From the sequence record NC_010105.1: 64,000 nucleotides of DNA; one strand, 5' to 3'. Made by a program: the position numbers and the translations under genes. Shown here piece by piece: positions 1,731 to 30,212 of this stretch. How positions within the stretch are numbered: position 1 is the first letter of the stretch; every line of letters begins with the position of its first letter. The DNA is from Escherichia phage JS98. The notes under the pieces are model-generated. The model did not search any database, was not told the DNA's origin, and saw only the letters and a list, made by a program, of their open reading frames with translations.

Positions 1731-3713
1731 ATGGCTTTATTATCACCGGGCATTGAGCTCAAAGAAACGTCCGTACAGAGTACTGTCGTTCGTAACGCAA
1801 CGGGTCGTGCAGCGCTGGTTGGTAAATTCCAGTGGGGCCCTGCTTTCCAGGTAACTCAGATTACCAATGAAGTTGAACTGGTTGATTTGTTTGGAGGTCC
1901 TAATAACGAAGTAGCAGATTACTTTATGTCTGGTATGAACTTCCTCCAGTATGGTAACGACCTTCGTACAGTTCGTGTCGTTAGTCGCGAATTTGCTAAA
2001 AACGCATCTCCTATCGCTGGTAATATTGAAACCACTATTACTACGGCTGGTTCCAACTATGCTGTAGGCGATAAAATTAATATTAAATATAACCAAACTG
2101 TAGTCGAATCTGAAGGTCGTGTGACTTCTGTAGATACAGACGGTAAAATTCTTTCTGTGTTTATTCCGTCAGCAAAAATTATTGCTTACGCACGTTCTTT
2201 AAACCAGTATCCTACCCTAGGCCCGGCTTGGACTGCTGAAGTTACTTCCGCCTCTTCGGGTGTTTCTGGTACTATTACCGTAGGTAAAATTGTTACGGAT
2301 TCCGGTATTCTTTTGACTGAAGCCGAGAATAGTGAAGAAGCTATTACTTCTCTTGAATTCCAAGCGGCCCTTAAGAAATTTGCTATGCCAGGCGTAGTGG
2401 CCCTTTATCCTGGTGAAATTGGTTCTACTCTGGAAGTAGAAATCGTTTCTAAAGCAGCTTATGAAGCTGGTTCTTCTAAAATGTTGGATGTTTATCCTGG
2501 TGGCGGTACCCGTGCTTCTATTGCCAAGGCAGTATTTAATTACGGACCTCAAACAGATGACCAATACGCAATTATCGTTCGTCGTGATGGCGCTATCGTA
2601 GAATCCGTCGTACTTTCTACCAAAGAAGGTGAAAAAGACGTTTACGGTAATAACATTTATCTTGACGACTATTTCGCTAAAGGTACTTCTAATTACATCT
2701 ATGCGACCTCGTTAAACTGGCCGAAAGGATTTAGTGGTATCATTAATCTGTCTGGTGGTATTTCCGCCAACGATAAAGTTACTGCAGGCGATTTGATGCA
2801 GGGTTGGGATTTGTTTGCCGACCGTGAAGCACTCCATATTAACCTGCTTATTGCTGGTGCTGTTGCTGGTGAAGGCGATGAAGTGGCTTCTACTGTTCAG
2901 AAACACGTTGTGAGTATTGCTGATGAACGTCAGGATTGCTTAGCATTTATTTCTCCTCCTAAAGGTCTGTTGGTTAACGTTCCACTGACTCGTGCAGTAG
3001 ATAACCTTATCGACTGGCGTACCGGTGCCGGTACTTTCGATGCCAACAACATGAACATCAGTACCACTTATGCCGCTATTGATGGTAATTATAAATATCA
3101 ATACGACAAATATAACGACGTAAACCGTTGGGTACCACTGGCTGCCGATTTGGCTGGTTTGTGTGCACGTACTGATGATGTGTCTCAACCTTGGATGTCT
3201 CCTGCCGGTTATAACCGTGGTCAGATTCTTAACGTTCTGAAATTGGCAATTGAACCACGTCAAGCACAACGTGACCGCATGTACCAGGAAGCTATTAACC
3301 CGGTTGTTGGTTTTGCTGGTGGTGATGGTTTCGTATTGTTTGGTGATAAGACTGCAACTAAAGTTCCATCTCCGATGGACCACATTAACGTTCGCCGTCT
3401 GTTCAACATGCTTAAGAAAAATATCGGTGATGCCTCTAAATATAAACTGTTTGAATTGAACGATAACTTCACTCGTTCAAGCTTCCGTATGGAAGTTTCT
3501 CAGTACTTAGATGGTATTAAGGCACTTGGTGGGATTTATGAAGGACGTGTGGTTTGTGATACTACAGTGAACACCCCTGCGGTTATCGACCGTAATGAGT
3601 TTATTGCTAATATCTATGTTAAACCTGCTCGTTCTATTAACTACATCACGTTGAACTTCGTTGCAACGAGCACTGGTGCTGATTTTGATGAATTGATTGG
3701 ACCTTTAGTATAA
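1731..3713 (+). CDS. 18: Tail sheath protein gp18
   Basis: 660 aa ORF (T4 gp18 is ~659 aa), position after gene 17, sequence MALLSPGIELKETS... matches T4 tail sheath. Confidence 0.93.
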   Translation: MALLSPGIELKETSVQSTVVRNATGRAALVGKFQWGPAFQVTQITNEVELVDLFGGPNNEVADYFMSGMNFLQYGNDLRTVRVVSREFAKNASPIAGNIETTITTAGSNYAVGDKINIKYNQTVVESEGRVTSVDTDGKILSVFIPSAKIIAYARSLNQYPTLGPAWTAEVTSASSGVSGTITVGKIVTDSGILLTEAENSEEAITSLEFQAALKKFAMPGVVALYPGEIGSTLEVEIVSKAAYEAGSSKMLDVYPGGGTRASIAKAVFNYGPQTDDQYAIIVRRDGAIVESVVLSTKEGEKDVYGNNIYLDDYFAKGTSNYIYATSLNWPKGFSGIINLSGGISANDKVTAGDLMQGWDLFADREALHINLLIAGAVAGEGDEVASTVQKHVVSIADERQDCLAFISPPKGLLVNVPLTRAVDNLIDWRTGAGTFDANNMNISTTYAAIDGNYKYQYDKYNDVNRWVPLAADLAGLCARTDDVSQPWMSPAGYNRGQILNVLKLAIEPRQAQRDRMYQEAINPVVGFAGGDGFVLFGDKTATKVPSPMDHINVRRLFNMLKKNIGDASKYKLFELNDNFTRSSFRMEVSQYLDGIKALGGIYEGRVVCDTTVNTPAVIDRNEFIANIYVKPARSINYITLNFVATSTGADFDELIGPLV

Positions 3714-3838
3714 TCTATTATCCCAGGCTGTAATATAAAGAACCTAAAACCATTATACCATGTGTTTGGTTACAGCGTACATCACGTAGAATTGCGCCTG
3801 GGAGTGATTAACTATCAGGAATATGATTTATCAACTGT

Positions 3839-3846
3839 TATAAATA
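3839..3846 (+). promoter_or_regulatory. Late promoter TATAAATA upstream of gene 19
   Basis: Exact TATAAATA in the 18-19 intergenic region. Confidence 0.55.
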
Positions 3847-3859
3847 AATTAATCAGAAC

Positions 3860-3880
3860 GTTCCTGGTGTGGCCAGGAAC
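3860..3880 (+). other. Perfect 8-bp stem hairpin (GTTCCTGG-tgtgg-CCAGGAAC) in the gene 19 leader
   Basis: Inverted repeat read directly; no U-tract, so more likely an RNA structure/stability element than a terminator. Confidence 0.4.
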
Positions 3881-3898
3881 TGACTTATGAGGCATCCC

Positions 3899-4390
3899 AT
3901 GGAGTTGACAGATATCACTCGTGCGTTTGAGTCAGGTGACTTTGCACGCCCTAACCTTTTCGAAGTGGAAATTCCATTTCTTGGTAAAAACTTTAGCTTT
4001 AAATGTAAAGCAGCACCTATGCCGGCAGGCATTGTAGAAAAAGTACCGGTTGGCTACATGAACCGTAAAATTAACGTAGCTGGCGACCGTACGTTTGATG
4101 ATTGGACCATTACCATTTATAACGATGATGCCCATGACACCCGTCAGGCAATTGTTGATTGGCAAAACCTCTGCCATGGTATGACCAATGAAATTACAGG
4201 TGCAGCACCTGCAGAATATAAGAAACAAGCAGTTGTTCGTCAGTTCCATCGTGACGGTAAGACTGTGACTAAAGAAGTTACAATTTATGGCTTATGGCCT
4301 ACTAACGTTGGTGAAGTCCAGATGGATTGGGATTCAAACAACGAGGTAGAAACTTTCGAATCTACGTTCGCTATCGATTGGTGGGAATGA
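3899..4390 (+). CDS. 19: Tail tube protein gp19
   Basis: MELTDITRAFESGDFARPNLF... matches T4 gp19; start chosen at the internal Met with GAGG Shine-Dalgarno (ORF track begins 3887); 163 aa. Confidence 0.88.
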   Translation: MELTDITRAFESGDFARPNLFEVEIPFLGKNFSFKCKAAPMPAGIVEKVPVGYMNRKINVAGDRTFDDWTITIYNDDAHDTRQAIVDWQNLCHGMTNEITGAAPAEYKKQAVVRQFHRDGKTVTKEVTIYGLWPTNVGEVQMDWDSNNEVETFESTFAIDWWE

Positions 4391-4391
4391 G

Positions 4392-4399
4392 TATAAATA
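4392..4399 (+). promoter_or_regulatory. Late promoter TATAAATA upstream of gene 20
   Basis: Exact TATAAATA immediately after gene 19 stop. Confidence 0.55.
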
Positions 4400-4407
4400 G
4401 AATTATA

Positions 4408-4425
4408 AAGGAGCTTCGGCTCCTT
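4408..4425 (+). other. Stem-loop AAGGAGC-ttcg-GCTCCTT (UUCG tetraloop) in 19-20 intergenic region
   Basis: 7-bp stem with TTCG loop seen directly; sits between the late promoter and gene 20 start. Confidence 0.45.
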
Positions 4426-4447
4426 ATCCCATTCATCGGAGACTCTA

Positions 4448-6022
4448 ATGGCAAACTTTAATACAATATTAAGTTTTCTTAAGCCATGGGCTAATGAAGA
4501 CGAAAAAGAATATAAACAACAAATTAATAACAATTTAGAGTCTGTCACTGCACCTAAGCTTGATGATGGCGCTCGCGAAATTGAAACCCAAGAGCAAAAT
4601 ATTCCTTATAACGCTCTTATGCAACAAATGTTTGGTAGTAATGAGCCTGAAGTTAAAAACACCAGGGAACTCATTGATACCTACCGTAATTTGATGAACA
4701 ACTATGAAGTCGATAACGCAGTTCAAGAAATTGTGTCTGACGCTATTGTCTACGAGGATGATAAAGAAGTAGTTGCATTAAATTTAGACGGGACAGATTT
4801 CAGTCAATCAATTAAAGATAAAATTTTGGCTGAATTTAGTGAAGTTTTGAATCTTTTAAATTTCCAACGTAAAGGCACTGACCATTTCCAACGTTGGTAT
4901 GTAGACTCGAGAATATTCTTTCATAAAATTATAAACCCTAAAAAAATGAAAGATGGCGTACAAGAGCTTCGACGCTTAGACCCGCGCCAAGTCCAATATA
5001 TTCGTGAAATTGTTACACGTATGGAAGATGGTGTTAAAATTGTAGATGGGTACCGCGAGTTTTTCGTTTACGATACTGGTCATGAAAGTTATTGTGCTGA
5101 TGGACGCATTTATTCAGCCGGGACTAAAGTTAAAATTCCTCGTGCTGCTGTAGTTTATGCACATTCTGGATTATTAGATTGTTGTGGTAAAAACATCATT
5201 GGCTATTTGCAACGTGCTATTAAGCCTGCAAACCAGCTTAAATTGATGGAAGACGCAATGGTCATCTACCGTATTACACGTGCTCCTGACCGTCGTGTGT
5301 TTTATATCGATACAGGTAATATGCCTTCACGTAAGGCTGCAGCACAAATGCAACATATCATGAACACGATGAAAAACCGTGTGGTATATGATGCTTCGAC
5401 CGGTAAAATTAAAAACCAGCAACATAATATGTCAATGACTGAAGACTATTGGTTGCAACGTCGAGACGGTAAAGCGGTAACAGAAGTTGATACCATGCCT
5501 GGCGCCACAGGTATGAGTGATATGGATGACGTTCTTTATTTCCGCACAGCACTTTATCGTGCACTGCGTATTCCAGAGTCACGTATCCCTAGTGAATCTA
5601 ATTCAGGCGTTATGTTTGATGCCGGTACAGCAATCACTCGTGATGAGTTGAAATTTGCTAAATGGATTCGACAGCTCCAAAATAAATTTGAAGAAATTTT
5701 CTTAGACCCATTAAAAACAAACCTCATTCTTAAAAAGATTATTACAGAAGATGAGTGGGAAAGAGAAATAAATAATATTAAAGTTACGTTCAACCGTGAT
5801 AGCTATTTCAGTGAAATGAAAGATGCGGAAATCATGGAACGCAGAATCAATATGCTAACGATGGCTGAACCATTTATTGGTAAGTATATTTCACATCAAA
5901 CGGCTATGAAAGATTTCCTTCAGATGACTGACGAAGAAATTAATCAAGAAGCTAAGCAAATTGAAGAAGAGTCTAAAGAGGCTCGTTTCCAAAACCCAGA
6001 TGAAGAAGAAGAGGATTTCTAA
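4448..6022 (+). CDS. 20: Portal vertex protein gp20
   Basis: 524 aa, same length as T4 gp20; gene order 19-20-67. Confidence 0.92.
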
Positions 6023-8227: not shown

Positions 8228-9787
8228 ATGAAAAAGAATGCATTAGTTCAAAAATGGTCCGCTCTGCTGGAAAACGAAGCTCTTCCTGAAATCGTTGGTG
8301 CTTCTAAACAAGCTATCATCGCTAAAATTTTCGAAAACCAGGAACAAGACATCCTGACTGCTCCAGAATATCGTGACGAAAAAATCTCCGAAGCATTTGG
8401 TTCTTTCCTGACTGAAGCTGAAATCGGTGGTGACCACGGTTATGATGCTACCAATATCGCAGCTGGCCAGACTTCTGGTGCTGTAACTCAGATTGGGCCG
8501 GCAGTAATGGGTATGGTTCGTCGTGCTATTCCTCATCTGATTGCTTTTGATATTTGTGGTGTTCAGCCTCTGAATAACCCTACCGGTCAGGTATTTGCAC
8601 TGCGTGCAGTATATGGTAAAGACCCTATCGCTGCAGGCGCTAAAGAAGCTTTCCATCCGATGTATGCTCCGAACGCTATGTTCTCTGGTCAGGGTGCTGC
8701 TGAAACTTTCGAAGCACTGGCTGCAAGCAAAGTTCTGGAAGTTGGTAAAATTTATTCTCACTTCTTCGAAGCTACCGGTTCTGCACACTTCCAGGCTGTT
8801 GAAGCTGTAACCGTTGATGCAGGCGCTACTGATGCCGCTAAACTGGATGCTGCTGTTACCGCTCTGGTTGAAGCTGGTCAGCTGGCTGAAATCGCTGAAG
8901 GTATGGCTACTTCTATCGCAGAACTTCAGGAAGGTTTCAACGGTTCTACCGATAACCCGTGGAACGAAATGGGCTTCCGCATCGACAAACAAGTTATCGA
9001 AGCTAAATCTCGTCAGCTGAAAGCAAGCTACTCTATCGAACTGGCACAGGACCTTCGTGCAGTACACGGTATGGATGCAGATGCTGAACTGTCCGGTATC
9101 CTTGCTACCGAAATTATGCTCGAAATCAACCGTGAAGTTATCGATTGGATTAACTACTCTGCACAGGTTGGTAAATCTGGTATGACCAACACCGTTGGCG
9201 CTAAAGCTGGTGTGTTTGACTTCCAGGACCCGATTGATATCCGTGGTGCTCGTTGGGCCGGTGAGAGCTTTAAAGCCCTTCTGTTCCAGATTGATAAAGA
9301 AGCAGCCGAAATCGCTCGTCAGACCGGTCGTGGTGCTGGTAACTTCATCATCGCTTCCCGTAACGTAGTTAACGTACTGGCTGCAGTTGATACTTCTGTA
9401 AGTTATGCAGCTCAAGGTCTGGGTCAGGGTTTCAACGTTGACACAACCAAAGCAGTATTTGCCGGTGTTCTTGGTGGTAAATATCGTGTTTACATCGACC
9501 AGTATGCTCGTTCCGATTACTTCACCATCGGTTATAAAGGTTCCAACGAAATGGACGCAGGTATCTACTATGCTCCGTACGTTGCGCTGACTCCGCTGCG
9601 TGGTTCCGATCCGAAGAACTTCCAACCGGTAATGGGCTTCAAAACTCGTTACGGTATCGGTATTAACCCGTTCGCTGACCCAGCTGCTCAGGCGCCTACC
9701 AAACGTATTCAGAATGGTATGCCTGACATCGTTAACAGCCTCGGTCTGAATGGTTACTTCCGTCGCGTATATGTTAAAGGTATCTAA
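8228..9787 (+). CDS. 23: Major capsid protein gp23
   Basis: 519 aa (T4 gp23 521 aa); position and sequence match. Confidence 0.95.
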   Translation: MKKNALVQKWSALLENEALPEIVGASKQAIIAKIFENQEQDILTAPEYRDEKISEAFGSFLTEAEIGGDHGYDATNIAAGQTSGAVTQIGPAVMGMVRRAIPHLIAFDICGVQPLNNPTGQVFALRAVYGKDPIAAGAKEAFHPMYAPNAMFSGQGAAETFEALAASKVLEVGKIYSHFFEATGSAHFQAVEAVTVDAGATDAAKLDAAVTALVEAGQLAEIAEGMATSIAELQEGFNGSTDNPWNEMGFRIDKQVIEAKSRQLKASYSIELAQDLRAVHGMDADAELSGILATEIMLEINREVIDWINYSAQVGKSGMTNTVGAKAGVFDFQDPIDIRGARWAGESFKALLFQIDKEAAEIARQTGRGAGNFIIASRNVVNVLAAVDTSVSYAAQGLGQGFNVDTTKAVFAGVLGGKYRVYIDQYARSDYFTIGYKGSNEMDAGIYYAPYVALTPLRGSDPKNFQPVMGFKTRYGIGINPFADPAAQAPTKRIQNGMPDIVNSLGLNGYFRRVYVKGI

Positions 9788-9802
9788 TATACACCTTATT
9801 AT

Positions 9803-9830
9803 GGGAGACTTCGGTCTCCCATTCTTGTTT
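9803..9830. terminator. Bidirectional rho-independent terminator after gene 23 (GGGAGAC-ttcg-GTCTCCC then T-run)
   Basis: 7-bp GC-rich stem, UUCG loop, followed by ATTCTTGTTT; lies between convergent genes. Confidence 0.75.
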
Positions 9831-9835
9831 CTATA

Positions 9836-10117
9836 CTATGCAATCTTAACACGACGGTTGATGATATCACGGAAGTCAATACGATTTTCTTGGATTTTCA
9901 GCCAGTTACCAGATTTGTCTTTGGTATGGGTAGAGTATTCACCGTTCCACCAGAAGTCGGTAGCATAAGCCATGGCTTCGTATTTCTTAACTAGTGCATT
10001 CACTGCATTACCGTTAGGATTGGAACCATATTTTTCTACCAGGGCTTTGATGTCTTTATCAAGAGCGGAAAGAGTAGTACGAATAAAGTTTAACTTGTTC
10101 ATTTTTAATCTCCTCAT
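9836..10117 (-). CDS. Hypothetical small early protein (93 aa) inserted between genes 23 and 24
   Basis: ORF with its own upstream PeSL-like early promoter; no recognisable motif. Confidence 0.5.
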   Translation of the reverse strand: MRRLKMNKLNFIRTTLSALDKDIKALVEKYGSNPNGNAVNALVKKYEAMAYATDFWWNGEYSTHTKDKSGNWLKIQENRIDFRDIINRRVKIA

Positions 10118-10167: not shown

Positions 10168-10175
10168 TATAAATA
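10168..10175 (+). promoter_or_regulatory. Late promoter TATAAATA upstream of gene 24
   Basis: Exact TATAAATA ~28 nt upstream of ATG at 10204. Confidence 0.55.
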
Positions 10176-10203
10176 AACATATACCCTCAATAAGGAAAGC
10201 GCA

Positions 10204-11484
10204 ATGGCAAAGATTAACGAATTACTGCGCGAGTCAACAACTACTTCTAGCAACTCATTGGGTCGCCCTAATCTTGTTGCTTTGACCCGTGCTACAACCA
10301 AATTGATTTACCGTGATATTATTGCTGAACAACGTACTAGCCAGCCTATTGCTGCATTGTATGGTGTCAAATATCTTACTCCTGATAATGAATTTAGCTT
10401 CCAAACTGGTGCCGTTTATGGCGGTGAAGTTGGTTCTAAAGACCGTGAAACTATCCCAGAACTCACAGATAAGGCCCAGGCTATTGCCAAGGGTGAATAT
10501 TTCAAGTATCAGAACATAGTTTATAAGGCTCTTCAAGCAAGCCCACTCGCATCCACTAGCGCTACAGAATTGGCTGAGGCCCTTCAAGAAGGTTTGGTGT
10601 CATTAACATGTCGTCTGGTTCCTGATGCGGCTCACACAGAGAAATTCGAAGCAGGTGATGTTGAAATTAGTAATGCAGTATTCCAGGTTAATAAATGGAA
10701 CGCACCTGTTAAGTCTCGTAAACTTAAAACCGCTTTGACTGTAGAACTAGCCCAAGACATGGAATCCAATGGCTTTGACGCCCCTGCGTTCTTAGAAGAC
10801 CTTTTAGCCACTGTAATGGCTGATGAAATCAATAAAGACGTACTACAATCCTTGATTACCGTATCTAAACGTTACAAAGTAACTGGTGTATCTGATAATG
10901 GTATTATTGATTTGTCCTATAATTCCGCCCCAGAAAGTGCACGTAAATTATATGAAATGGTTTGTGAGATGAATTCTGAAATTCAGAAAACCACTTCTTA
11001 TTCAGGTACGTTTGTTGTCGCATCTAGTCGTGCTGCTGCTATGCTCGCTGGTTCAGGTTGGTTGAAACATAAACCAGAAGATGAAGCTTGGCTCCCAGAA
11101 ACTGCTTACGGTTATTTGATTAATGGATTGCCTGTATTCTGTGATGTTAATAGTCCTTTAGATTATGTTATCGTAGGCGTTAAAGAAGATTACGGCGGTA
11201 ATGAAGTAGTTGGTTCTATTTTCTATGCTCCATATACCGAAGGTCTGGATTTAGACGACCAAGAACATGTTGGTGCGTATAAAGTTATTGTAGACCCTGA
11301 TAGTTTACAACCGGCTATTTCTCTGATGGTTCGTTATGCACTTTCAGCAAACCCATATACCGTTGCTAAAGATGATAAAGAAGCTCGTGTTATAGACGCA
11401 ACTAATATGGATTTAATGGCAGGTCAGAGTAACATGTCTTATCTGCTTGGTGTTAAACTTCCTCCGATTATTTACGAGGCATAA
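10204..11484 (+). CDS. 24: Capsid vertex protein gp24 (copy 1, closest to T4 gp24)
   Basis: 426 aa; MAKINELLRESTTT...GRPNLVALTRATTKLIY matches T4 gp24. Confidence 0.9.
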   Translation: MAKINELLRESTTTSSNSLGRPNLVALTRATTKLIYRDIIAEQRTSQPIAALYGVKYLTPDNEFSFQTGAVYGGEVGSKDRETIPELTDKAQAIAKGEYFKYQNIVYKALQASPLASTSATELAEALQEGLVSLTCRLVPDAAHTEKFEAGDVEISNAVFQVNKWNAPVKSRKLKTALTVELAQDMESNGFDAPAFLEDLLATVMADEINKDVLQSLITVSKRYKVTGVSDNGIIDLSYNSAPESARKLYEMVCEMNSEIQKTTSYSGTFVVASSRAAAMLAGSGWLKHKPEDEAWLPETAYGYLINGLPVFCDVNSPLDYVIVGVKEDYGGNEVVGSIFYAPYTEGLDLDDQEHVGAYKVIVDPDSLQPAISLMVRYALSANPYTVAKDDKEARVIDATNMDLMAGQSNMSYLLGVKLPPIIYEA

Positions 11485-12768
11485 ATGAAAAAGATTAATG
11501 CATTAATACAAGAATCAACTTTGACGGCGGCCAACCAGGTCGCCCGTCCTAATCTTCTTTCATATACCCAGGCAACTAATAAAAGAATTTTTAAAGCCCT
11601 TGTTGCTGAACAAAAAACTACTCAACCTGTTGCAGCATTATATGGTGTCCGTGTTTTAAACCCAGACGATAAAATGACTTATCTCGGCGGAGCCACTTTT
11701 GCAGGCGAAATTGGTATGTTCGAACGTAAAAACATTCCTGAGTTCACCGATAAAGACGAAGCATATGCTGTTGGCGATATGTTCCAATTCGAAAGTGTGG
11801 TTTTCAAGGTATTAGAAGCTTCTCCGTTTGCAGGAACAACTGAAACCGATTTGAGTGAAGTTATTTCAGAAGCTATTGCCGCGGGCCATATTCGTATGAT
11901 GTCTGATGCAGCCTTTACCAATAAATTTGAAAAAGGTCATCCTGAGATTGCTGAAGCAGGGTTCCGTATTGATAAGTGGCAGACTGAAGTTAAATCGCGT
12001 AAACTTAAAACTTCTTTGACTGTGGAACTGGCCCAGGATTTAGAATCCAACGGGTTTAATGCACCGGACTTTATAGACAATATTTTGGCTATTCAAATGG
12101 CTGAAGAAATTAATAAAGACGTATTACAGTCCTTAATTACAGTAAGTTCTCGTTTTAAAGTCCAAGGAGTTTCTGAGAAAGGTGTCTTGAACTTAACAGA
12201 CCCACAATACGATAACGCCCAAGACCGAGCACGTACCTTGTATTACTATATGTGTGAAATGAATTCTGCTGTTCAACGCCAGACTTCGTTTGCAGGTACT
12301 TATGCAGTAGCTTCTTCTCGCTGCGCTGCTATTTTAGCTGCATCCGGTTGGGTTGAGAAAAAAGAAGACCAAGACGAATTAGCTTATGGCGTATTAAAGA
12401 ACGGTCTACCACTTTATGCTGATATGAACAGCCCGTGTGATTATGTTATTGTCGGTGTAAATGCTCAGATGGGTGAAGGGCAGACGGTCGCATCTTTGTA
12501 TTATGCGCCTTATACGGAAGGGCTCGAAGAGGTTGATGATGAAGGTGATACTTCAGTAGGTGAATTCAAGGTTATTGTAGACCCGGATTCATTGCAACCT
12601 ACCATATCTTTATTGGCTCGGTATGCATTGACTGCGAATCCTTATACCGTCGCTAAAGACGACAAAGAAGCTCGTATTATTGATGGTGCGGATATGGACA
12701 AAATGGCTAATCAAAGTCAATTGAGTTCTTATCTTGGTGTAAAACTTCCTCCATTGGATAAAAACTAA
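11485..12768 (+). CDS. Capsid vertex protein gp24 paralog (copy 2, divergent)
   Basis: 427 aa, immediately downstream; alignable to copy 1 along full length with conserved blocks (KSRKLKT..TVELAQD, INKDVLQSLITVS, VIVDPDSLQP, ANPYTVAKDDKEAR). Confidence 0.85.
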   Translation: MKKINALIQESTLTAANQVARPNLLSYTQATNKRIFKALVAEQKTTQPVAALYGVRVLNPDDKMTYLGGATFAGEIGMFERKNIPEFTDKDEAYAVGDMFQFESVVFKVLEASPFAGTTETDLSEVISEAIAAGHIRMMSDAAFTNKFEKGHPEIAEAGFRIDKWQTEVKSRKLKTSLTVELAQDLESNGFNAPDFIDNILAIQMAEEINKDVLQSLITVSSRFKVQGVSEKGVLNLTDPQYDNAQDRARTLYYYMCEMNSAVQRQTSFAGTYAVASSRCAAILAASGWVEKKEDQDELAYGVLKNGLPLYADMNSPCDYVIVGVNAQMGEGQTVASLYYAPYTEGLEEVDDEGDTSVGEFKVIVDPDSLQPTISLLARYALTANPYTVAKDDKEARIIDGADMDKMANQSQLSSYLGVKLPPLDKN

Positions 12769-12769
12769 A

Positions 12770-12790
12770 AAGGGACCTTACGGTCCCTTT
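12770..12790. terminator. Bidirectional terminator between gene 24 copy 2 and rnlB (AGGGACC-ttac-GGTCCCT)
   Basis: 7-bp stem flanked by A-run upstream and T-rich downstream; convergent genes. Confidence 0.65.
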
Positions 12791-15777: not shown

Positions 15778-15785
15778 GTATAAAT
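15778..15785 (+). promoter_or_regulatory. Late promoter TATAAATA upstream of uvsW
   Basis: Exact TATAAATA ~30 nt upstream of uvsW ATG. Confidence 0.55.
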
Positions 15786-15791
15786 ATAGTT

Positions 15792-15799
15792 ATATTTAT
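15792..15799 (-). promoter_or_regulatory. Late promoter (TATAAATA on minus strand) upstream of inh
   Basis: Plus-strand TATTTATA about 33 nt upstream of inh ATG, divergent from uvsW promoter. Confidence 0.5.
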
Positions 15800-15814
15800 A
15801 ACTGAGAATTACTT

Positions 15815-19413: not shown

Positions 19414-19425
19414 TATTTATAAATA
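19414..19425. promoter_or_regulatory. Overlapping divergent late promoters (palindrome TATTTATAAATA) for gene 26 (minus) and gene 51 (plus)
   Basis: TATAAATA readable on both strands, ~20 nt from each start codon. Confidence 0.55.
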
Positions 19426-25997: not shown

Positions 25998-28124
25998 CTA
26001 CATTTTGAATTTATTTGGTAAAGAAGAGATGTCCAAAGATGCAGCAAGGATTTCCATAGCCTCATTACTTTCTGAAACAGATTCTGAAACTAGGAATTCT
26101 TTAAACCCGTTCATCAATTTAACTTCACCGGTTTCCATCAGATGGTCACCATCGTAAACGGACTCACTGAGTTCTGAAGGAGATGTCACTGTAGCTTCCA
26201 TAAGGTATTTGTGAGATACTCTATCATTCATAGCAAAAGCCGCTACTTTATCAACCTTCAACAATAATCCTCGCGGAAGGATAATTTCTGCTTCTTCGGA
26301 ATATTCTGTAAGGTCACCAGGAGCGATAACTTTAACTGCTTCAGCACCTCGAATAACCATACCGATTTCAGCAATCCTGTCTGCAGGGCCTTCAGGTGCA
26401 ATTGGATTACCGAACTCGTCTTCTTCCCATTCTACCTCTTCATCATCAACTTCGCCTACATCAGATGAACTACCACTGGCTAATTTAAACAACTCATCAG
26501 CGGAGGATAAAGAACCTTCATCACCAACAAAAACTGCTTGGTTGTCGAGGGCCATATAATTTTTACCAAATTCGCCAAAGATATTAGGCTTTAATGAAGC
26601 AGACACAAAGTTCTTAAAGTAAAATGTTTTGTTATCAATATTATGGCGCAGAATTTTGTATGGTAAATCCTGACCACGATACAAAATAGTACCCTTAGGA
26701 AGTTTAATACCCTTGGTAAATGCTGAGTCTAAATCCTTAATCAATTTAATAGCTGTTGTATTGTTTTCGGATTCAGGTTTACCTAAAAGGAATAAGTTCA
26801 TAGGAGCATATTCAGCCGCACAATATTCAATAATGGCATTGCTTTCGTCTTTGGTCAAGCCCTTAGGTTTAATGAGCTCGCCTGAATAAGCATATGCATC
26901 GCTAATAGAATCGTTAATCAGTTTATAAACGGCTTCCATAGCGAAAGCAATTCGGGATGCTTTCTCTGAAGGAGACCCCTGAAAACGGGCACTCAGGTTA
27001 TTAACAATTCTCTTAATAATATCCAGACTATTGGTAGTATTGATTTGAGAAAGGCCACTTAAAAGTCTATCGACTTCCGTATTAAAAAATGCCATATTAT
27101 TAGAGTAAATTTCAAACCCTTGTTTATCTCTATTAGCATAATTTAGTTTAAATTTACTATCAGTCATTAAAGCGTGCGTGAGAGCAATGGTGTATCTAAA
27201 GTTGGCAAGGTCCTCACTCTTAGATTTAAACTGAGAGGCCTGACGCATTTTAGTAATAGCACCTTTTTTAAAGTTCTGACTAATCTGCTCAATACCTTCG
27301 TTCTCAGGGCCTTCGGCCGAGTGAACAGGGACAGAAGCTTCAAACTCGTTATAAACCTGCAATTCTTTAGGTGATAAAGTTTCAGGTTCGGCAGTAGAAT
27401 ACTGCGCTGCTGCAGCCATACGACGGGAAATCTTAGTACGAGAAATAACAGCCTTATCGGTACGTTTCTCTTCAACCTGTGCAATAGATGCTGCTACGGC
27501 TTCGACCTTACTTACAGCCTGGCCGGTTTTCTTAGAAACATAAACTTCACCGACTTTAGACTCAACCTTGGTATAAAGGTCCGCATCAATTTCAGGCATA
27601 CCCTTGATATCTTCGATATTAGTGCCACGACGTGCTAAAAGAACGTATGTATGTTTACCACTAAACTGGAACATATCATCGACAACTTTAAACTTACCAC
27701 CGGTACGGGCCATCGCCAAACGAGCTAATACACGCTGAACAGTAGGGCCTTTACCTTTCATTTTCTTGGTAGGGAAACGGAATAAAACCGCATCCATTTT
27801 AAGTTTATTTACTTGTTCGTATATCGTATCGAAAATAGTATTCAATGTACCAAGTGGGTCGGAACCAAGGCCACCTTTGAGTTCAGCCGGGGCACCCTTG
27901 CTCGACAAACTCATTAAAATAACATGGACATATTTGTCGCCTGGCTTAACCATTTTAATAGCGTCTCCTTGAGACGCATAAGATACCATACGAGCAACCA
28001 GGTTATCGTTACCCGGTGCATGGATAGAGAAAATCTGTGGAATACCGGAACCCGGTTTAAGATTTGTTACTGGATAGTTTTTAGCGGAATCACTATCAAA
28101 AACCTCGTTTAAATTTTCCATCAT
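25998..28124 (-). CDS. Alt-family ADP-ribosyltransferase, paralog 2 (708 aa)
   Basis: Shares N-terminal (M.E.LNEVF.S) and C-terminal blocks with the upstream alt: RGQ/RAQ, FYFKNFVSASL, EIILPRGLL.K.DK. Confidence 0.85.
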   Translation of the reverse strand: MMENLNEVFDSDSAKNYPVTNLKPGSGIPQIFSIHAPGNDNLVARMVSYASQGDAIKMVKPGDKYVHVILMSLSSKGAPAELKGGLGSDPLGTLNTIFDTIYEQVNKLKMDAVLFRFPTKKMKGKGPTVQRVLARLAMARTGGKFKVVDDMFQFSGKHTYVLLARRGTNIEDIKGMPEIDADLYTKVESKVGEVYVSKKTGQAVSKVEAVAASIAQVEEKRTDKAVISRTKISRRMAAAAQYSTAEPETLSPKELQVYNEFEASVPVHSAEGPENEGIEQISQNFKKGAITKMRQASQFKSKSEDLANFRYTIALTHALMTDSKFKLNYANRDKQGFEIYSNNMAFFNTEVDRLLSGLSQINTTNSLDIIKRIVNNLSARFQGSPSEKASRIAFAMEAVYKLINDSISDAYAYSGELIKPKGLTKDESNAIIEYCAAEYAPMNLFLLGKPESENNTTAIKLIKDLDSAFTKGIKLPKGTILYRGQDLPYKILRHNIDNKTFYFKNFVSASLKPNIFGEFGKNYMALDNQAVFVGDEGSLSSADELFKLASGSSSDVGEVDDEEVEWEEDEFGNPIAPEGPADRIAEIGMVIRGAEAVKVIAPGDLTEYSEEAEIILPRGLLLKVDKVAAFAMNDRVSHKYLMEATVTSPSELSESVYDGDHLMETGEVKLMNGFKEFLVSESVSESNEAMEILAASLDISSLPNKFKM

Positions 28125-30212
28125 TTACCCTTGGATGAATTTTTCTGGTATGCCATAGAGGTCTATGCATGAAGCCAAAAGAGGCAGTACGTCAAACCGT
28201 GTAGATTTAACAAATGAATCAAAAGATACAGGGCTTTCGGAAGTATCGAAGTCATCTTGGTATACGACCAACTCACCAGTTTCCATTAGTACGTCACCAT
28301 CATACACTACAGATTCTTGAAGCTCATCTGATGTCATAACTTCAGCTTGAATAAATTTATTGTTAGACACCGCCCCAGAACCAGTATTGGCTGATGCATC
28401 CACGATTTTATCTATTTTTACAAGTAGCCCGCGTGGTAAAATTATTTCCTTTTCGTTGGCATGCATGCTTAATTGGCCAGGATAAATCACGTTAACCTTA
28501 TGAGCGCCACTAATAGCCCAGCCAACATCAACACGGATTTGATCCGGTGCATACATATGTGTACGCACTTGACTAGCCGAGATGGTAACGCCTTCGTCAT
28601 TATTATCAATGTTTAATTCTTTTCGAACATCATCGGAAGCAAGACCAATAGCCGCATTCTCTTTAAAGCCACCAAAAATGATTGGAGCCAATGAGGTTGA
28701 AACATAGTTTCTAAAATAGAATACCTTATTTTTAACTAATGCTTCGTAGATAGGCGCGCGCAAAGATTGTGCTCTATAAACCATTATTCCTTCAGGTAAA
28801 CGGTCACCATTTTTAAAGGCAGAATCCATTCCATCAATAGCACGTTTAACTTCGCTTTCGTCCAAAACTTCATAAAAGCCCGGTTTATAACGGCCAAGAA
28901 GGACATTGTTAATATCAATATAAGCTGAAGAGGCGTATTCTCTGATAGCTCGTTTTTCTGCAAGTGTATATTGTTTAGGGTCTCGAGATGTTGTTATATT
29001 AAGAATTTCTCTAGTTGATTCTATAGCGTATGTATACATTATCTTAGACAAGAATGAAGACTTACGTTGTTTCCATACTCTTTCACTGTTTTCATTCAAT
29101 ATCTCTTTTTCCAAATGGAAATTGTCTTTTCTATAATCTTCAAACCAATCACTTTTAATAGATTCTGCGATTTCATTAGCAGCTTCAACAAAGGCGGCTA
29201 AAGCTTTAACTGACGTGGTTTTTTCATTTTTAATTTTTTTGACAAATTTTTCTAAAGAAGAGTTAATTTTATCACCGTAAGAAACTTCATCCGCAAATTT
29301 AAATGAATCATCCATAGTATTATAAATTTTAAAATCAATAGCCGTAGCCAGCTTATCCTTAGCTGTTTCGGATGATAATGATAATTCAACTTCGGCTGCT
29401 TGTGGAATTAATTCCGCCGTAGCAGGCGCACTGAACTCATTGGCAGTTTGTTCATATTTCTGAAATAATTCACCTTCATTACGGTCTGCTTCTAATGACT
29501 GGCTTGCCGCAATCGCACGACGAGAAATCTTAGTCTTGGTTATAACCATTTTATCAGTGCGACGTTCTTCAACTTTAGCAATACTGCCGGCAATAGCGGT
29601 TTCTTTAGTAACCTGAGCGCCTTCTTTTTTAGAAATATAAACTTCACCAACATCAGAATCTACCTTAGTATATAATTCGGCATTAATTCCAGGCATACCT
29701 TTGATATCTTCGATATCAGCTTGTTTACGAACTACTAGGATATAAGTATGTTTACCGGTAAATTGGTACATGGCTGGAACTACTTTAAAACGTCCACCGG
29801 TTTTCTGTGCTACCAAACGTTGGATAATCCGTTGGACAATAGGTCCTTGTCCTTTCATTTTCTTGGTTGGAAAACGGAACATCACAGCATCCATACGAAG
29901 CTTTTTAACTTGTTCGAATACTACGTCGAAAATGGTATTAATAGCATCAATAGGAGTAGGGCCTAATCCACCTTTAAGTTCGGCTGGAGTACCTTTAGCT
30001 GATAAACTCATCAAAATAACGTGGGCATATTTATCACCTAATTTAACCTGTTTAATAGCATCGCCTTCAGAGGCATAAGATACCATACGAGCAACTAATT
30101 GGGATTCGGCGTCGCCAATCTTCCAAATCTGGGGTACTTTAAGTTTTGGGTTTAAGTTTACAGTAGGCAGGGTGCCTTCGGACTCAAACACCTCATTCAA
30201 TTGTTCGGTCAT
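28125..30212 (-). CDS. alt: Alt ADP-ribosyltransferase (capsid-packaged, injected), paralog 1 (695 aa)
   Basis: Position upstream of gene 30 as in T4; R-S-E type ART motifs (YRAQ, FYFRNYVSTSL, EKEIILPRGLLVKIDK). Confidence 0.85.
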   Translation of the reverse strand: MTEQLNEVFESEGTLPTVNLNPKLKVPQIWKIGDAESQLVARMVSYASEGDAIKQVKLGDKYAHVILMSLSAKGTPAELKGGLGPTPIDAINTIFDVVFEQVKKLRMDAVMFRFPTKKMKGQGPIVQRIIQRLVAQKTGGRFKVVPAMYQFTGKHTYILVVRKQADIEDIKGMPGINAELYTKVDSDVGEVYISKKEGAQVTKETAIAGSIAKVEERRTDKMVITKTKISRRAIAASQSLEADRNEGELFQKYEQTANEFSAPATAELIPQAAEVELSLSSETAKDKLATAIDFKIYNTMDDSFKFADEVSYGDKINSSLEKFVKKIKNEKTTSVKALAAFVEAANEIAESIKSDWFEDYRKDNFHLEKEILNENSERVWKQRKSSFLSKIMYTYAIESTREILNITTSRDPKQYTLAEKRAIREYASSAYIDINNVLLGRYKPGFYEVLDESEVKRAIDGMDSAFKNGDRLPEGIMVYRAQSLRAPIYEALVKNKVFYFRNYVSTSLAPIIFGGFKENAAIGLASDDVRKELNIDNNDEGVTISASQVRTHMYAPDQIRVDVGWAISGAHKVNVIYPGQLSMHANEKEIILPRGLLVKIDKIVDASANTGSGAVSNNKFIQAEVMTSDELQESVVYDGDVLMETGELVVYQDDFDTSESPVSFDSFVKSTRFDVLPLLASCIDLYGIPEKFIQG

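Follow-up and report, generated by a model that had tools for sequence, protein, structure and literature searches.

The window analysed here, a stretch of 64,000 nucleotides of Escherichia phage JS98 (NC_010105.1), contains two intact, full-length genes of the gp24 (capsid vertex) type, which its list of open reading frames places head to tail on the plus strand. The stop codon of the upstream gene (TAA, 11482–11484) is directly followed by the ATG of the downstream gene at 11485, i.e., the spacer is zero. The gene order gp20-gp21-gp22-gp23-(orf)-24a-24b-rnlB matches the synteny of T4, and the slot between gene 23 and rnlB is common to both phages. However, T4 holds a single gene 24 (427 aa) between segD and rnlB, whereas the window phage holds two. 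The genes relevant here are:

8228..9787, plus strand: gene 23, major capsid protein, 519 aa, third PF07068 member in the window (E = 5e-123)
10204..11484, plus strand: gp24a (copy 1), 426 aa, canonical capsid vertex protein, ortholog of T4 gp24
11485..12768, plus strand: gp24b (copy 2), 427 aa, member of the downstream-copy clade of gp24

Both copies match PF07068 end to end (326.8 bits for copy 1 and 329.8 bits for copy 2, profile positions 3–376 of 376; cut-off 24.4 bits) as well as PHROG 138 (E = 2e-131 and 7e-124, respectively). Aligned with each other from end to end, they agree in 56% of residues (E = 5e-180), and copies 1 and 2 share 70.5 and 55.7% identity with T4 gp24. The solved T4 gp24 structures (1YUE, 5VF3, 7VS5) align end to end with both proteins, e.g., 1YUE with 662 bits for copy 1 (E = 2.5e-198) and with 503 bits for copy 2 (E = 4.3e-150, residues 1–424). 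Matches to gp23 chains reach 45–48 bits (E of about 1e-11) and cover residues 131/156–390 only, and the window gp23, itself 84.7% identical to T4 gp23, shows only 27–29% identity to the two copies. By score and collinearity, both are consequently of the gp24 (penton) rather than the gp23 (hexon) type. The fold of copy 2 can be regarded as fixed because of its 56% full-length identity to a solved structure; by homology, the whole HK97 fold plus the I domain is conserved and no domain was gained or lost. The initial annotation, which had proposed two tandem gene 24 paralogs, a first copy close to T4 gp24 and a full-length, divergent second copy directly downstream, as opposed to one gene 24 in T4, thus described the locus correctly in all of these points.

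Duplication of a capsid gene has a precedent in these phages, as the major capsid gene was duplicated into a specialised penton gene and mutations in gp23 can bypass gp24 (PMC3012670, PMC10580926). The same logic, i.e., duplication of an HK97-fold capsid gene and subsequent specialisation of one copy, could apply here. Unlike the gp23/gp24 pair, however, the duplication in the window falls within the penton lineage (503 and 662 bits to gp24 vs. about 47 bits to gp23).

Transcription, translation and maturation signals

The following signals were read from the region around the two genes:

9801..9822, plus strand: terminator-like hairpin after gene 23, nine-pair stem followed by TCTTGTTTCT, consensus match only
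10168..10175, plus strand: T4-type late promoter consensus TATAAATA, exact match, lying 28 nt ahead of the ATG of copy 1
10192..10197, plus strand: Shine-Dalgarno-like AAGGAA of copy 1, with GGA ending 7 nt before the ATG
11476..11479, plus strand: Shine-Dalgarno GAGG of copy 2, within the 3' end of copy 1 and 5 nt before the ATG
12769..12790, no strand assigned: hairpin AAAGGGACC-TTAC-GGTCCCTTT between the convergent copy 2 (plus) and rnlB (minus)

A late promoter in front of gene 24 is also common to T4 and the window. The consensus TATAAATA occurs 16 times in the window vs. 6.7 matches expected, and after 10168–10175 there is no further exact match on the plus strand before 15779. Even with up to one mismatch allowed, no late promoter was found on the plus strand between 10176 and 12768, in agreement with the initial annotation, which had seen no promoter between the copies. 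Sigma-70-like matches in the region stayed below expectation (4 vs. 8.1 expected from shuffles). The gp24 pair would consequently be served by only one late promoter, at 10168–10175, and copy 2 is likely co-transcribed with copy 1, since no other late promoter is present. The hairpin at 9801–9822 would part the gene 23 transcript from this gene 24 unit. At the distal end, the hairpin at 12769–12790 looks like the terminator of rnlB because its T-run lies on the minus strand only; read on the plus strand, it would be a 3' hairpin without a U-tract.

The close contact of the two genes is not a peculiarity of the window. The 24a and 24b genes overlap by 1 nt in JS10, S16 and Bp7 and by 4 nt in P545, and the junction of the four FBB1-like loci is a 1-nt overlap in three and a 1-nt spacer in the other. 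A tight junction, abutting or overlapping, is conserved across genera.

Both proteins also keep the predicted site of the prohead protease gp21 ([LI]-x-E; T4 is cut after Glu10). Copy 1 reads LLRE|S at residues 7–11, where mature T4 gp24* begins, and copy 2 reads LIQE|S at the aligned position; the motif [LI]-x-E|S is present in all b-type sequences aligned. Consistently, the mature T4 chains in 5VF3 and 8GMO start at aligned residue 11.

Age, selection and diagnostic residues of the downstream copy

Neighbor-joining trees with 300–500 bootstraps, in which support was determined by counting bipartitions, place the downstream copies, including copy 2 of the window, in a clade of their own (100%). 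Copy 1 groups with the gp24 of T4, Mosigvirus, Karamvirus and Moonvirus and apart from copy 2 (99–100%), and the clade of all upstream copies together with these proteins and the SP18-type gp24, which leaves out the b-type proteins, has 100% support. Monophyly of a and b was recovered in none of the 300–500 bootstrap trees (0%). The indels agree with this separation, and the a subtree mirrors the b subtree at the genus level. According to these trees, the a and b lineages parted before copy 1 diverged from T4 gp24, i.e., the split is ancient; the recent duplication implicit in the initial annotation is contradicted by both trees and indels. Within Dhakavirus and Gaprivervirus, partners were reshuffled: copy 2 of the window is closest to the b gene of UPEC01 (95.5%), and copy 1 to the a copies of VR5, Bp7 and JS10 (about 95%). 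In a first tree, the gp24 of the Jiaodavirus-like phage Roth16 appeared as sister of the b clade (83%); its support dropped to 10–31% with more taxa and the placement was rejected. Roth16 itself looks mosaic.

Purifying selection is equally strong on both copies (dN/dS of about 0.04–0.07), with values of 0.04–0.07 for copy 1 (unsaturated pairs) and of 0.02–0.08 for copy 2. Since dS is mostly near or beyond saturation, the pair has been kept over a long time, and between copies 1 and 2 of the window dS is saturated. GC content is near-identical (0.407 and 0.408) and codon usage is correlated (r = 0.92). No sign of gene conversion was found between the two copies, as DNA identity ranges from 0.48 to 0.73 per 90-nt window and the longest exact shared tract measures 14 nt.

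Diagnostic substitutions, defined as copy-specific departures from a residue otherwise conserved to at least 80%, amount to 16 in the b clade vs. one in the upstream copies. They comprise L27[FY], R29[KQ], T32N, L34R, Y36F, K56R, Y57V, Y108F, P244Q, Y267F, K328N, E335Q, G338[AS], H356x, M412L and L415Y, and cluster in the N-arm. Copy 2 of the window bears Y27, Q29, N32, R34, F36, R56, V57 and Q335. Its acidic loop, at T4 residues 348–359, is moreover longer than that of T4, which together with the 16 substitutions and the separate clade sets it apart from T4 gp24, of which copy 1 is the ortholog. In the T4 capsid, residues 11–20 of gp24 contact the neighbouring hexamer, residues 26–29 form a beta-pair with an I-domain linker from the subunit next to it, and residues 60–81 belong to linker 1 (PMC9546572).

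Distribution of the pair and single-gp24 relatives

Two gp24 copies are found in about 117–122 of about 1416 gp24-bearing records, or roughly 8% of the T4-like phages sequenced. Pairs were found in Dhakavirus, Gaprivervirus, Gelderlandvirus and Marfavirus as well as in FBB1-like contigs (Erwinia phage FBB1). At a threshold of at least 80% identity, 90 phage records carry an a-type and 90 a b-type gene, and all annotated pair-bearing isolates inspected have the b gene immediately 3' of an A-type gene. Likewise, an a-type gene lies directly upstream in 15 of 15 b-type loci from IMG/VR and in five of five metagenome or FBB1-like loci whose b-type protein is only 67–69% identical. Neither copy was thus found alone, be it in the records (90 of 90) or in the loci inspected (20 of 20), down to 67% identity.

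The gp24 pair as such is already known and ordinary for the JS98 species. Dhakavirus MN04, which belongs to this species like the window, shares 99.3% identity with it over the locus and has both genes annotated, and other relatives list them as 24a/24b (JS10, IME08) or as capsid vertex protein I/II. In print, the pair of the Salmonella phages S16 and Melville is described in one sentence of the Melville genome announcement (PMC6486254). The pairs of MN04, JS10, IME08, S16 and Melville type are the same as that of the window, with orthologous a and b genes, the same order and a tight junction, and nothing structural differs. The searchable literature yielded no functional or evolutionary analysis of the gp24 pair, nor proteomics, cryo-EM or genetics on any pair-bearing phage. 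What the present analysis adds are the selection on both copies, the age and strict partnering of the b clade, its diagnostic residues and the non-universality of the pair.

The latter follows from Dhakavirus MX01, Gaprivervirus SP18, P479 and others (19 records), which carry a single gp24 at the same locus. The reservation that the arrangement could be universal and already characterised applies only in part. The pair is annotated in the species and genus and mentioned in print, but it is not universal, as MX01 and the SP18-like phages carry just one gp24. The flanks of MX01 are mostly 90–100% identical to the window, falling to 80–86% in the last windows beside gene 24, and its gp23 is about 98% identical (97.7% in close single-gp24 relatives). 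The single gp24 of MX01 and SP18 represents a third allele type, 68–70% identical to copy 1 and 53% to copy 2. A deletion chimera of copies 1 and 2 was considered as its origin and rejected, the protein being uniformly A-like along its length. This comparison shows the pair as one of two alternative states of an exchangeable module at the gp24 locus. A second penton is not structurally required by the lattice, because close relatives with near-identical gp23 use one gp24. No co-adaptation of gp23 to the pair was seen, as 0 of 27 variable columns discriminate pair-bearers from single-bearers.

Possible roles of a second vertex protein

The reading we prefer, and which we judge to be slightly on the probable side, is that of one late operon encoding two functional vertex proteins. 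Both genes would be driven by the late promoter at 10168, and copy 2 would be translated from its own GAGG beside the stop codon of copy 1, so that gp24a and gp24b would be made together. Here, gp24a represents the canonical T4-type vertex protein, and gp24b an old paralog lineage which seems to exist only as downstream partner of an A-type gene. The latter has kept the whole gp24 architecture, the protease cleavage motif included, and has fixed substitutions of its own, among them those in the N-arm (27–36) and at 56–57 just before I-domain linker 1. Most likely, both proteins would undergo cleavage by gp21 and be incorporated at the 11 non-portal vertices. Mapping of the substitutions to the T4 contacts, taken from their published description rather than from coordinates (PMC9546572), suggests that gp24b subunits probably assemble with one another into homopentamers of matched contacts and are not a silent spare. 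The locus itself behaves like a cassette that can be exchanged, with sister phages of near-identical flanks carrying the single third-type gp24. A mixed or alternative pentamer composition, as raised in the initial annotation, is a plausible hypothesis.

In T4, the 55 gp24* subunits show no structural difference among each other (PMC9546572), and the model system therefore gives no call for two pentons. This point and the single gp24 of relatives with near-identical gp23 speak against the preferred reading. A farther-reaching and distinctly tentative proposal would be that pair-bearing Tevenvirinae build two chemically distinct pentons and place them non-randomly, the b clade being specialised and the single gene of T4 resulting from secondary loss out of an ancestral state with two pentons. 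Candidate positions for gp24b homopentamers would be one symmetry class of vertices of the prolate head, either the vertex of the axial cap or a single ring of five, with gp24a occupying the others.

An alternative option could be a role of gp24b away from mature vertices, e.g., as prohead assembly or nucleation factor, as decoy for capsid-sensing host defences or as a vertex protein used conditionally, depending on host or temperature. The changes in the N-arm (27–36), a contact arm in T4, make an altered partner choice conceivable, and the invariance of gp23 towards the presence of b would also fit. Several pair-bearing isolates, the VR phages, are known as low-temperature phages, which would fit a conditional role. 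However, translation closely coupled to that of gp24a, a shared codon usage and the conserved protease site argue for a co-assembled structural protein, the HK97 fold plus I domain is conserved at 56% identity to a solved penton, and we regard such a role as unlikely.

Less likely still is a redundant spare or dosage copy, with interchangeable proteins mixing randomly and the second gene raising supply or buffering mutations. In favour of it, all general gp24 features are kept by both copies, relatives of the same genomic background get by with one gp24, and a and b partners were reshuffled within Dhakavirus and Gaprivervirus. Redundancy should, however, lead to frequent loss or decay, yet neither copy was seen without the other and dN/dS of copy 2 is as low as that of copy 1. 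Moreover, fixed changes at otherwise near-invariant residues, 16 downstream vs. one upstream, are a signature of specialisation.

A tandem duplication of gene 24 that arose recently within this phage or genus, with a quickly diverging copy 2, would agree with the adjacency, same orientation and near-identical length of the genes, but the grouping of copy 1, without copy 2, with T4-type gp24 in the neighbor-joining trees, the concordant indels, the presence of the pair in several genera with congruent subtrees, the saturated dS and a longest shared tract of 14 nt make it very improbable. Finally, a mis-called open reading frame or a pseudogene, the latter named at the outset as a possible objection to copy 2, has practically no probability left given a frame that is fully open in every relative examined, constraint equal to that of copy 1 and a match to the solved structure over residues 1–424.

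T4 serves as the reference model of how prolate capsids assemble, and no distinction is made among its 11 gp24 vertices. About 8% of sequenced T4-like phages keep a second penton gene, anciently diverged and strongly constrained, among them the genera Dhakavirus and Gelderlandvirus with their JS98-type coliphages and S16-type Salmonella phages. If gp24b does not sit on defined vertices, the pair would be a well-conserved curiosity. If it does, these phages would be a naturally occurring example of tailed phages with specialised vertex classes and would provide a genetic handle on vertex recognition during prohead assembly.

Two abutting genes of the gp24 type

At 10204-12768, two full-length gp24 paralogs lie in tandem, exactly as claimed in the initial annotation and as seen from the reading frames, the Pfam family and the matches to solved structures of gp24, the capsid vertex (penton) protein of T4. 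The features of this region are:

8228-9787: gene 23, encoding the major capsid (hexon) protein gp23
9801-9822: hairpin followed by a T-run, 3' of gene 23
10168-10175, + strand: T4 late-promoter consensus TATAAATA, 28 nt 5' of the copy 1 start
10204-11484, + strand: copy 1 (gp24a), open reading frame of 426 aa
5 nt before the copy 2 ATG, + strand: Shine-Dalgarno GAGG for copy 2, within the 3' end of copy 1
11485-12768, + strand: copy 2 (gp24b), open reading frame of 427 aa, back to back with copy 1
12769-12790: hairpin between copy 2 and the convergent rnlB

The ATG of copy 2 directly follows the TAA stop of copy 1 (11482-11484), and the proteins are 56% identical over their full length (E=5e-180), in line with the description of copy 2 as a full-length divergent paralog. 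Both match PF07068 end to end and the T4 gp24 structures 1YUE, 5VF3 and 7VS5 from residue 1 to about 424 (E=2.5e-198 for copy 1, 4.3e-150 for copy 2), whereas gp23 chains are matched at about 1e-11 only and the gp23 encoded in the window is just 27-29% identical to either copy. Since the gp24 match is by far the stronger, both are of the gp24 (penton) type and not additional gp23 copies. Identity to T4 gp24 amounts to 70.5% for copy 1, which was rightly described as close to it, and 55.7% for copy 2. The copies are nearly equal in GC content (0.407 and 0.408) and nearly alike in codon usage (r=0.92).

The consensus TATAAATA occurs in the window more often than expected (16 vs. 6.7 copies), and its next exact match on the + strand is found at 15779. 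Consistent with the earlier statement that no promoter separates the copies, the + strand from 10176 to the end of copy 2 (12768) holds no 8-mer with at most one mismatch to it, and sigma-70-like matches in the region are rarer than in shuffled sequence. From these signals, we infer that copies 1 and 2 would share a single late transcript with coupled translation. At two intergenic sites, copies of TATAAATA on the two strands lie close together, either divergent or overlapping, namely 15779-15786 (+) with 15793-15800 (-) and 19414-19421 (-) with 19418-19425 (+).

Between genes 23 and 24, a 93-aa open reading frame on the opposite strand (9836-10117, -) matches PHROG 6003 and had no Pfam match. 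It is kept in Dhakavirus and Gaprivervirus and occupies the slot of the homing endonuclease gene segD in T4; Tequatrovirus JK45 carries between these genes both segD and a hypothetical gene of similar size. Another tandem paralog pair of the window is formed by adjacent frames of 708 and 695 aa (25998-28124 and 28125-30212, both -), which match the single T4 alt (ADP-ribosyltransferase; 33.5% and 43% identity) and also the single alt of phage S16.

Distribution and origin of the downstream copy

Searching 50,697 phage records by tblastn gave 1538 places in 1416 records for copy 1 and 1534 places in 1417 records for copy 2; as places exceed records, roughly 117-122 records (about 8%) carry two gp24 genes. 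Orthologs of at least 80% identity were present in exactly 90 records for either copy, and Marfavirus phages contribute further pairs (73% and 79%). In spread samples, records matched by copy 2 at 79% or above always had two places, and those at 62.7% or less always a single one. In IMG/VR, each of the 15 loci carrying a downstream (b-type) gene has an upstream (a-type) gene immediately 5' of it. Among 5.8 billion proteins searched, there were b-type proteins just 65-69% identical to copy 2, one of them from Erwinia phage FBB1. Four such proteins (67-69%) were looked up, giving five loci, in each of which gene 23 and a further gp24 gene directly precede the b-type gene; three of the four junctions read show a TAATG stop/start overlap and the fourth a 1-nt spacer. 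A solitary b-type gene was seen neither in the phage-record samples nor in the 15 IMG/VR or the five distant loci. Four FBB1-like or metagenome loci (L049 4845-6382, L050 4845-6400, L052 4826-6341 and L048 2676-4506) hold two additional + strand genes between gp24b and rnlB (about 332-352 aa and 165-279 aa, one with a faint collagen-repeat match), which are not present in the window.

Copy 2 is not a pseudogene, a possibility raised by the initial annotation: across seven orthologous pairs, Nei-Gojobori dN/dS was about 0.04-0.07 among upstream copies and 0.02-0.08 among downstream ones, so that copy 2 is constrained as much as copy 1. Synonymous sites were near or beyond saturation in most between-genus comparisons and, together with this constraint, indicate that the pair is old.

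A phylogeny of both copies, proposed earlier as a check, was computed by neighbour-joining with bipartition bootstraps (300-500 replicates). The downstream copies form one clade (100%), and upstream and downstream copies were jointly monophyletic in none of the replicates. Another 100% clade leaves out the b-type genes and unites all upstream copies with the single-copy gp24 genes of T4, Mosigvirus, Karamvirus and Moonvirus and with those of the SP18/MX01 type; within this A clade, FBB1-like upstream copies fall outside a 93% group of T4 and Dhakavirus-type a copies. Subtrees a and b are congruent at the genus level. Indels are consistent with the trees, as the inner A group has a loop shortened at T4 residues about 238-240 and another lengthened at about 290-300, and all b-clade members have a lengthened acidic loop 348-359. 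Trees and indels thus make the a/b split older than the separation of copy 1 and T4 gp24. The simplest reading, neighbour-joining being a limited tool here, would be a single ancient duplication after which several lineages, that of T4 among them, lost the downstream gene; an alternative to such a duplication with losses could be the transfer of the whole cassette.

For Klebsiella phage Roth16 (Jiaodavirus-like), an early candidate sister of the b clade, support dropped from 83% to 10-31% with more taxa. Its single gp24 (L005 3501-4781) has the look of a mosaic: over the first 40 residues, identity is 88% to copy 1 and 53% to copy 2, and residues about 121-320 are nearer copy 2 (58-80%) than copy 1 (34-75%).

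Residues that set gp24b apart

We set 12 proteins of the b clade against 29 gp24 proteins from outside it, distant sequences of Krischvirus, Aeromonas and Acinetobacter phages among them, and counted as diagnostic each position at which a residue common to 80% or more of the outside set occurs in no b-clade member. Sixteen positions qualified, i.e., L27[FY], R29[KQ], T32N, L34R, Y36F, K56R, Y57V, Y108F, P244Q, Y267F, K328N, E335Q, G338[AS], H356x, M412L and L415Y, compared with one in the identical test of the upstream copies; no variation at R29, L34, Y57 or E335 was seen among the 29 non-b proteins. In the prolate-head structures of T4 (PMC9546572), gp24* reaches the adjoining gp23 hexamer with residues 11-20, and its residues 26-29 engage in parallel beta pairing with an I-domain linker from the next subunit of its pentamer; residues 60-81 belong to linker 1, and 348-359 make up a mobile loop. 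Five of the 16 changes lie in the N-arm (27-36), two just before linker 1 (56-57) and the others are spread over the rest of gp24b, in which the mobile loop is also longer. The pattern suggests that subunit-subunit contacts of gp24b may have been re-tuned, most simply towards pentamers of its own, and that gp24a could retain the canonical function. The earlier idea that two vertex proteins might give mixed or alternative pentamers is a reasonable one.

Alternative gp24 modules and prior annotation

A third allele, a single gp24 with 68-70% identity to copy 1 and 53% to copy 2, was found in 19 records, e.g., Dhakavirus MX01, Gaprivervirus SP18, P479 and AnYang; in MX01 (L047) and SP18 (L046), it occupies 3201-4481 in place of the pair. 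In 100-nt windows, the MX01 flanks are mostly 90-100% identical to our window on either side, dropping to 80-86% in the last windows beside gene 24 and 59-76% within it, which points to a clean cassette replacement at the gene borders. A fusion of copies 1 and 2 is ruled out, as this gene is A-like throughout its length. gp23 is about 98% identical between phages with the pair and those with the single gene, and of the 27 columns that vary in it, not one tells the two groups apart; the capsid lattice can therefore be closed by either module.

Compared with S16 (L044) and T4 (L045), positions 1-34411 are a gene-by-gene identity mosaic, with gp19 and gp18 nearer S16 and 30.2 and 30.7 nearer T4 (gp30.7: 92.6% vs. 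45.5% to S16). gp21, gp22, RnlB, Hoc and Inh are also nearer T4, whereas both gp24 copies are much nearer S16 (86% and 84%, vs. 70.5% and 55.7% to T4). Judged by these identities, the history of the flanking genes differs from that of gene 24. The locus behaves as an exchangeable cassette. Copy 2 is 95.5% identical to its UPEC01 (L008) counterpart and copy 1 only 90%; copy 1 is about 95% identical to the a copies of VR5, Bp7 and JS10 and copy 2 about 90-91% to their b copies. These differing nearest relatives imply recombination within or between both genes among close relatives, in which a and b partners have been reshuffled.

Across the 5.6 kb from gene 23 to rnlB, the identity is 99.3% with Escherichia phage MN04 (Dhakavirus JS98), 88-97% with further phages of Dhakavirus and about 83% with those of Gaprivervirus. 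The MN04 record lists 'capsid vertex protein' twice, JS10 and IME08 name the pair 24a and 24b, and VR5 has 'capsid vertex protein I' and 'II'. Annotation of both genes extends to Salmonella phage S16 (Gelderlandvirus); Klebsiella phage P545 (Marfavirus) also has the pair, under the bare label 'hypothetical protein'. T4 has one gene 24, in agreement with the initial annotation. The tandem pair is thus already known, being annotated for the JS98 species and in print for related genera. Of the proviso that it might be universal and characterised, the latter applies as far as annotation in the species goes; the former does not, given the single gp24 of Dhakavirus MX01 and the SP18-type phages. Our full-text literature search found no study of second-copy function.

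Three results go beyond annotation, and they do not by themselves demonstrate a new mechanism. The downstream genes make up a paralog lineage of their own, ancient and never solitary, with a clear signature of specialisation, the pair alternates with a single-gene cassette within one genus, and the single-copy state of T4 may be derived.
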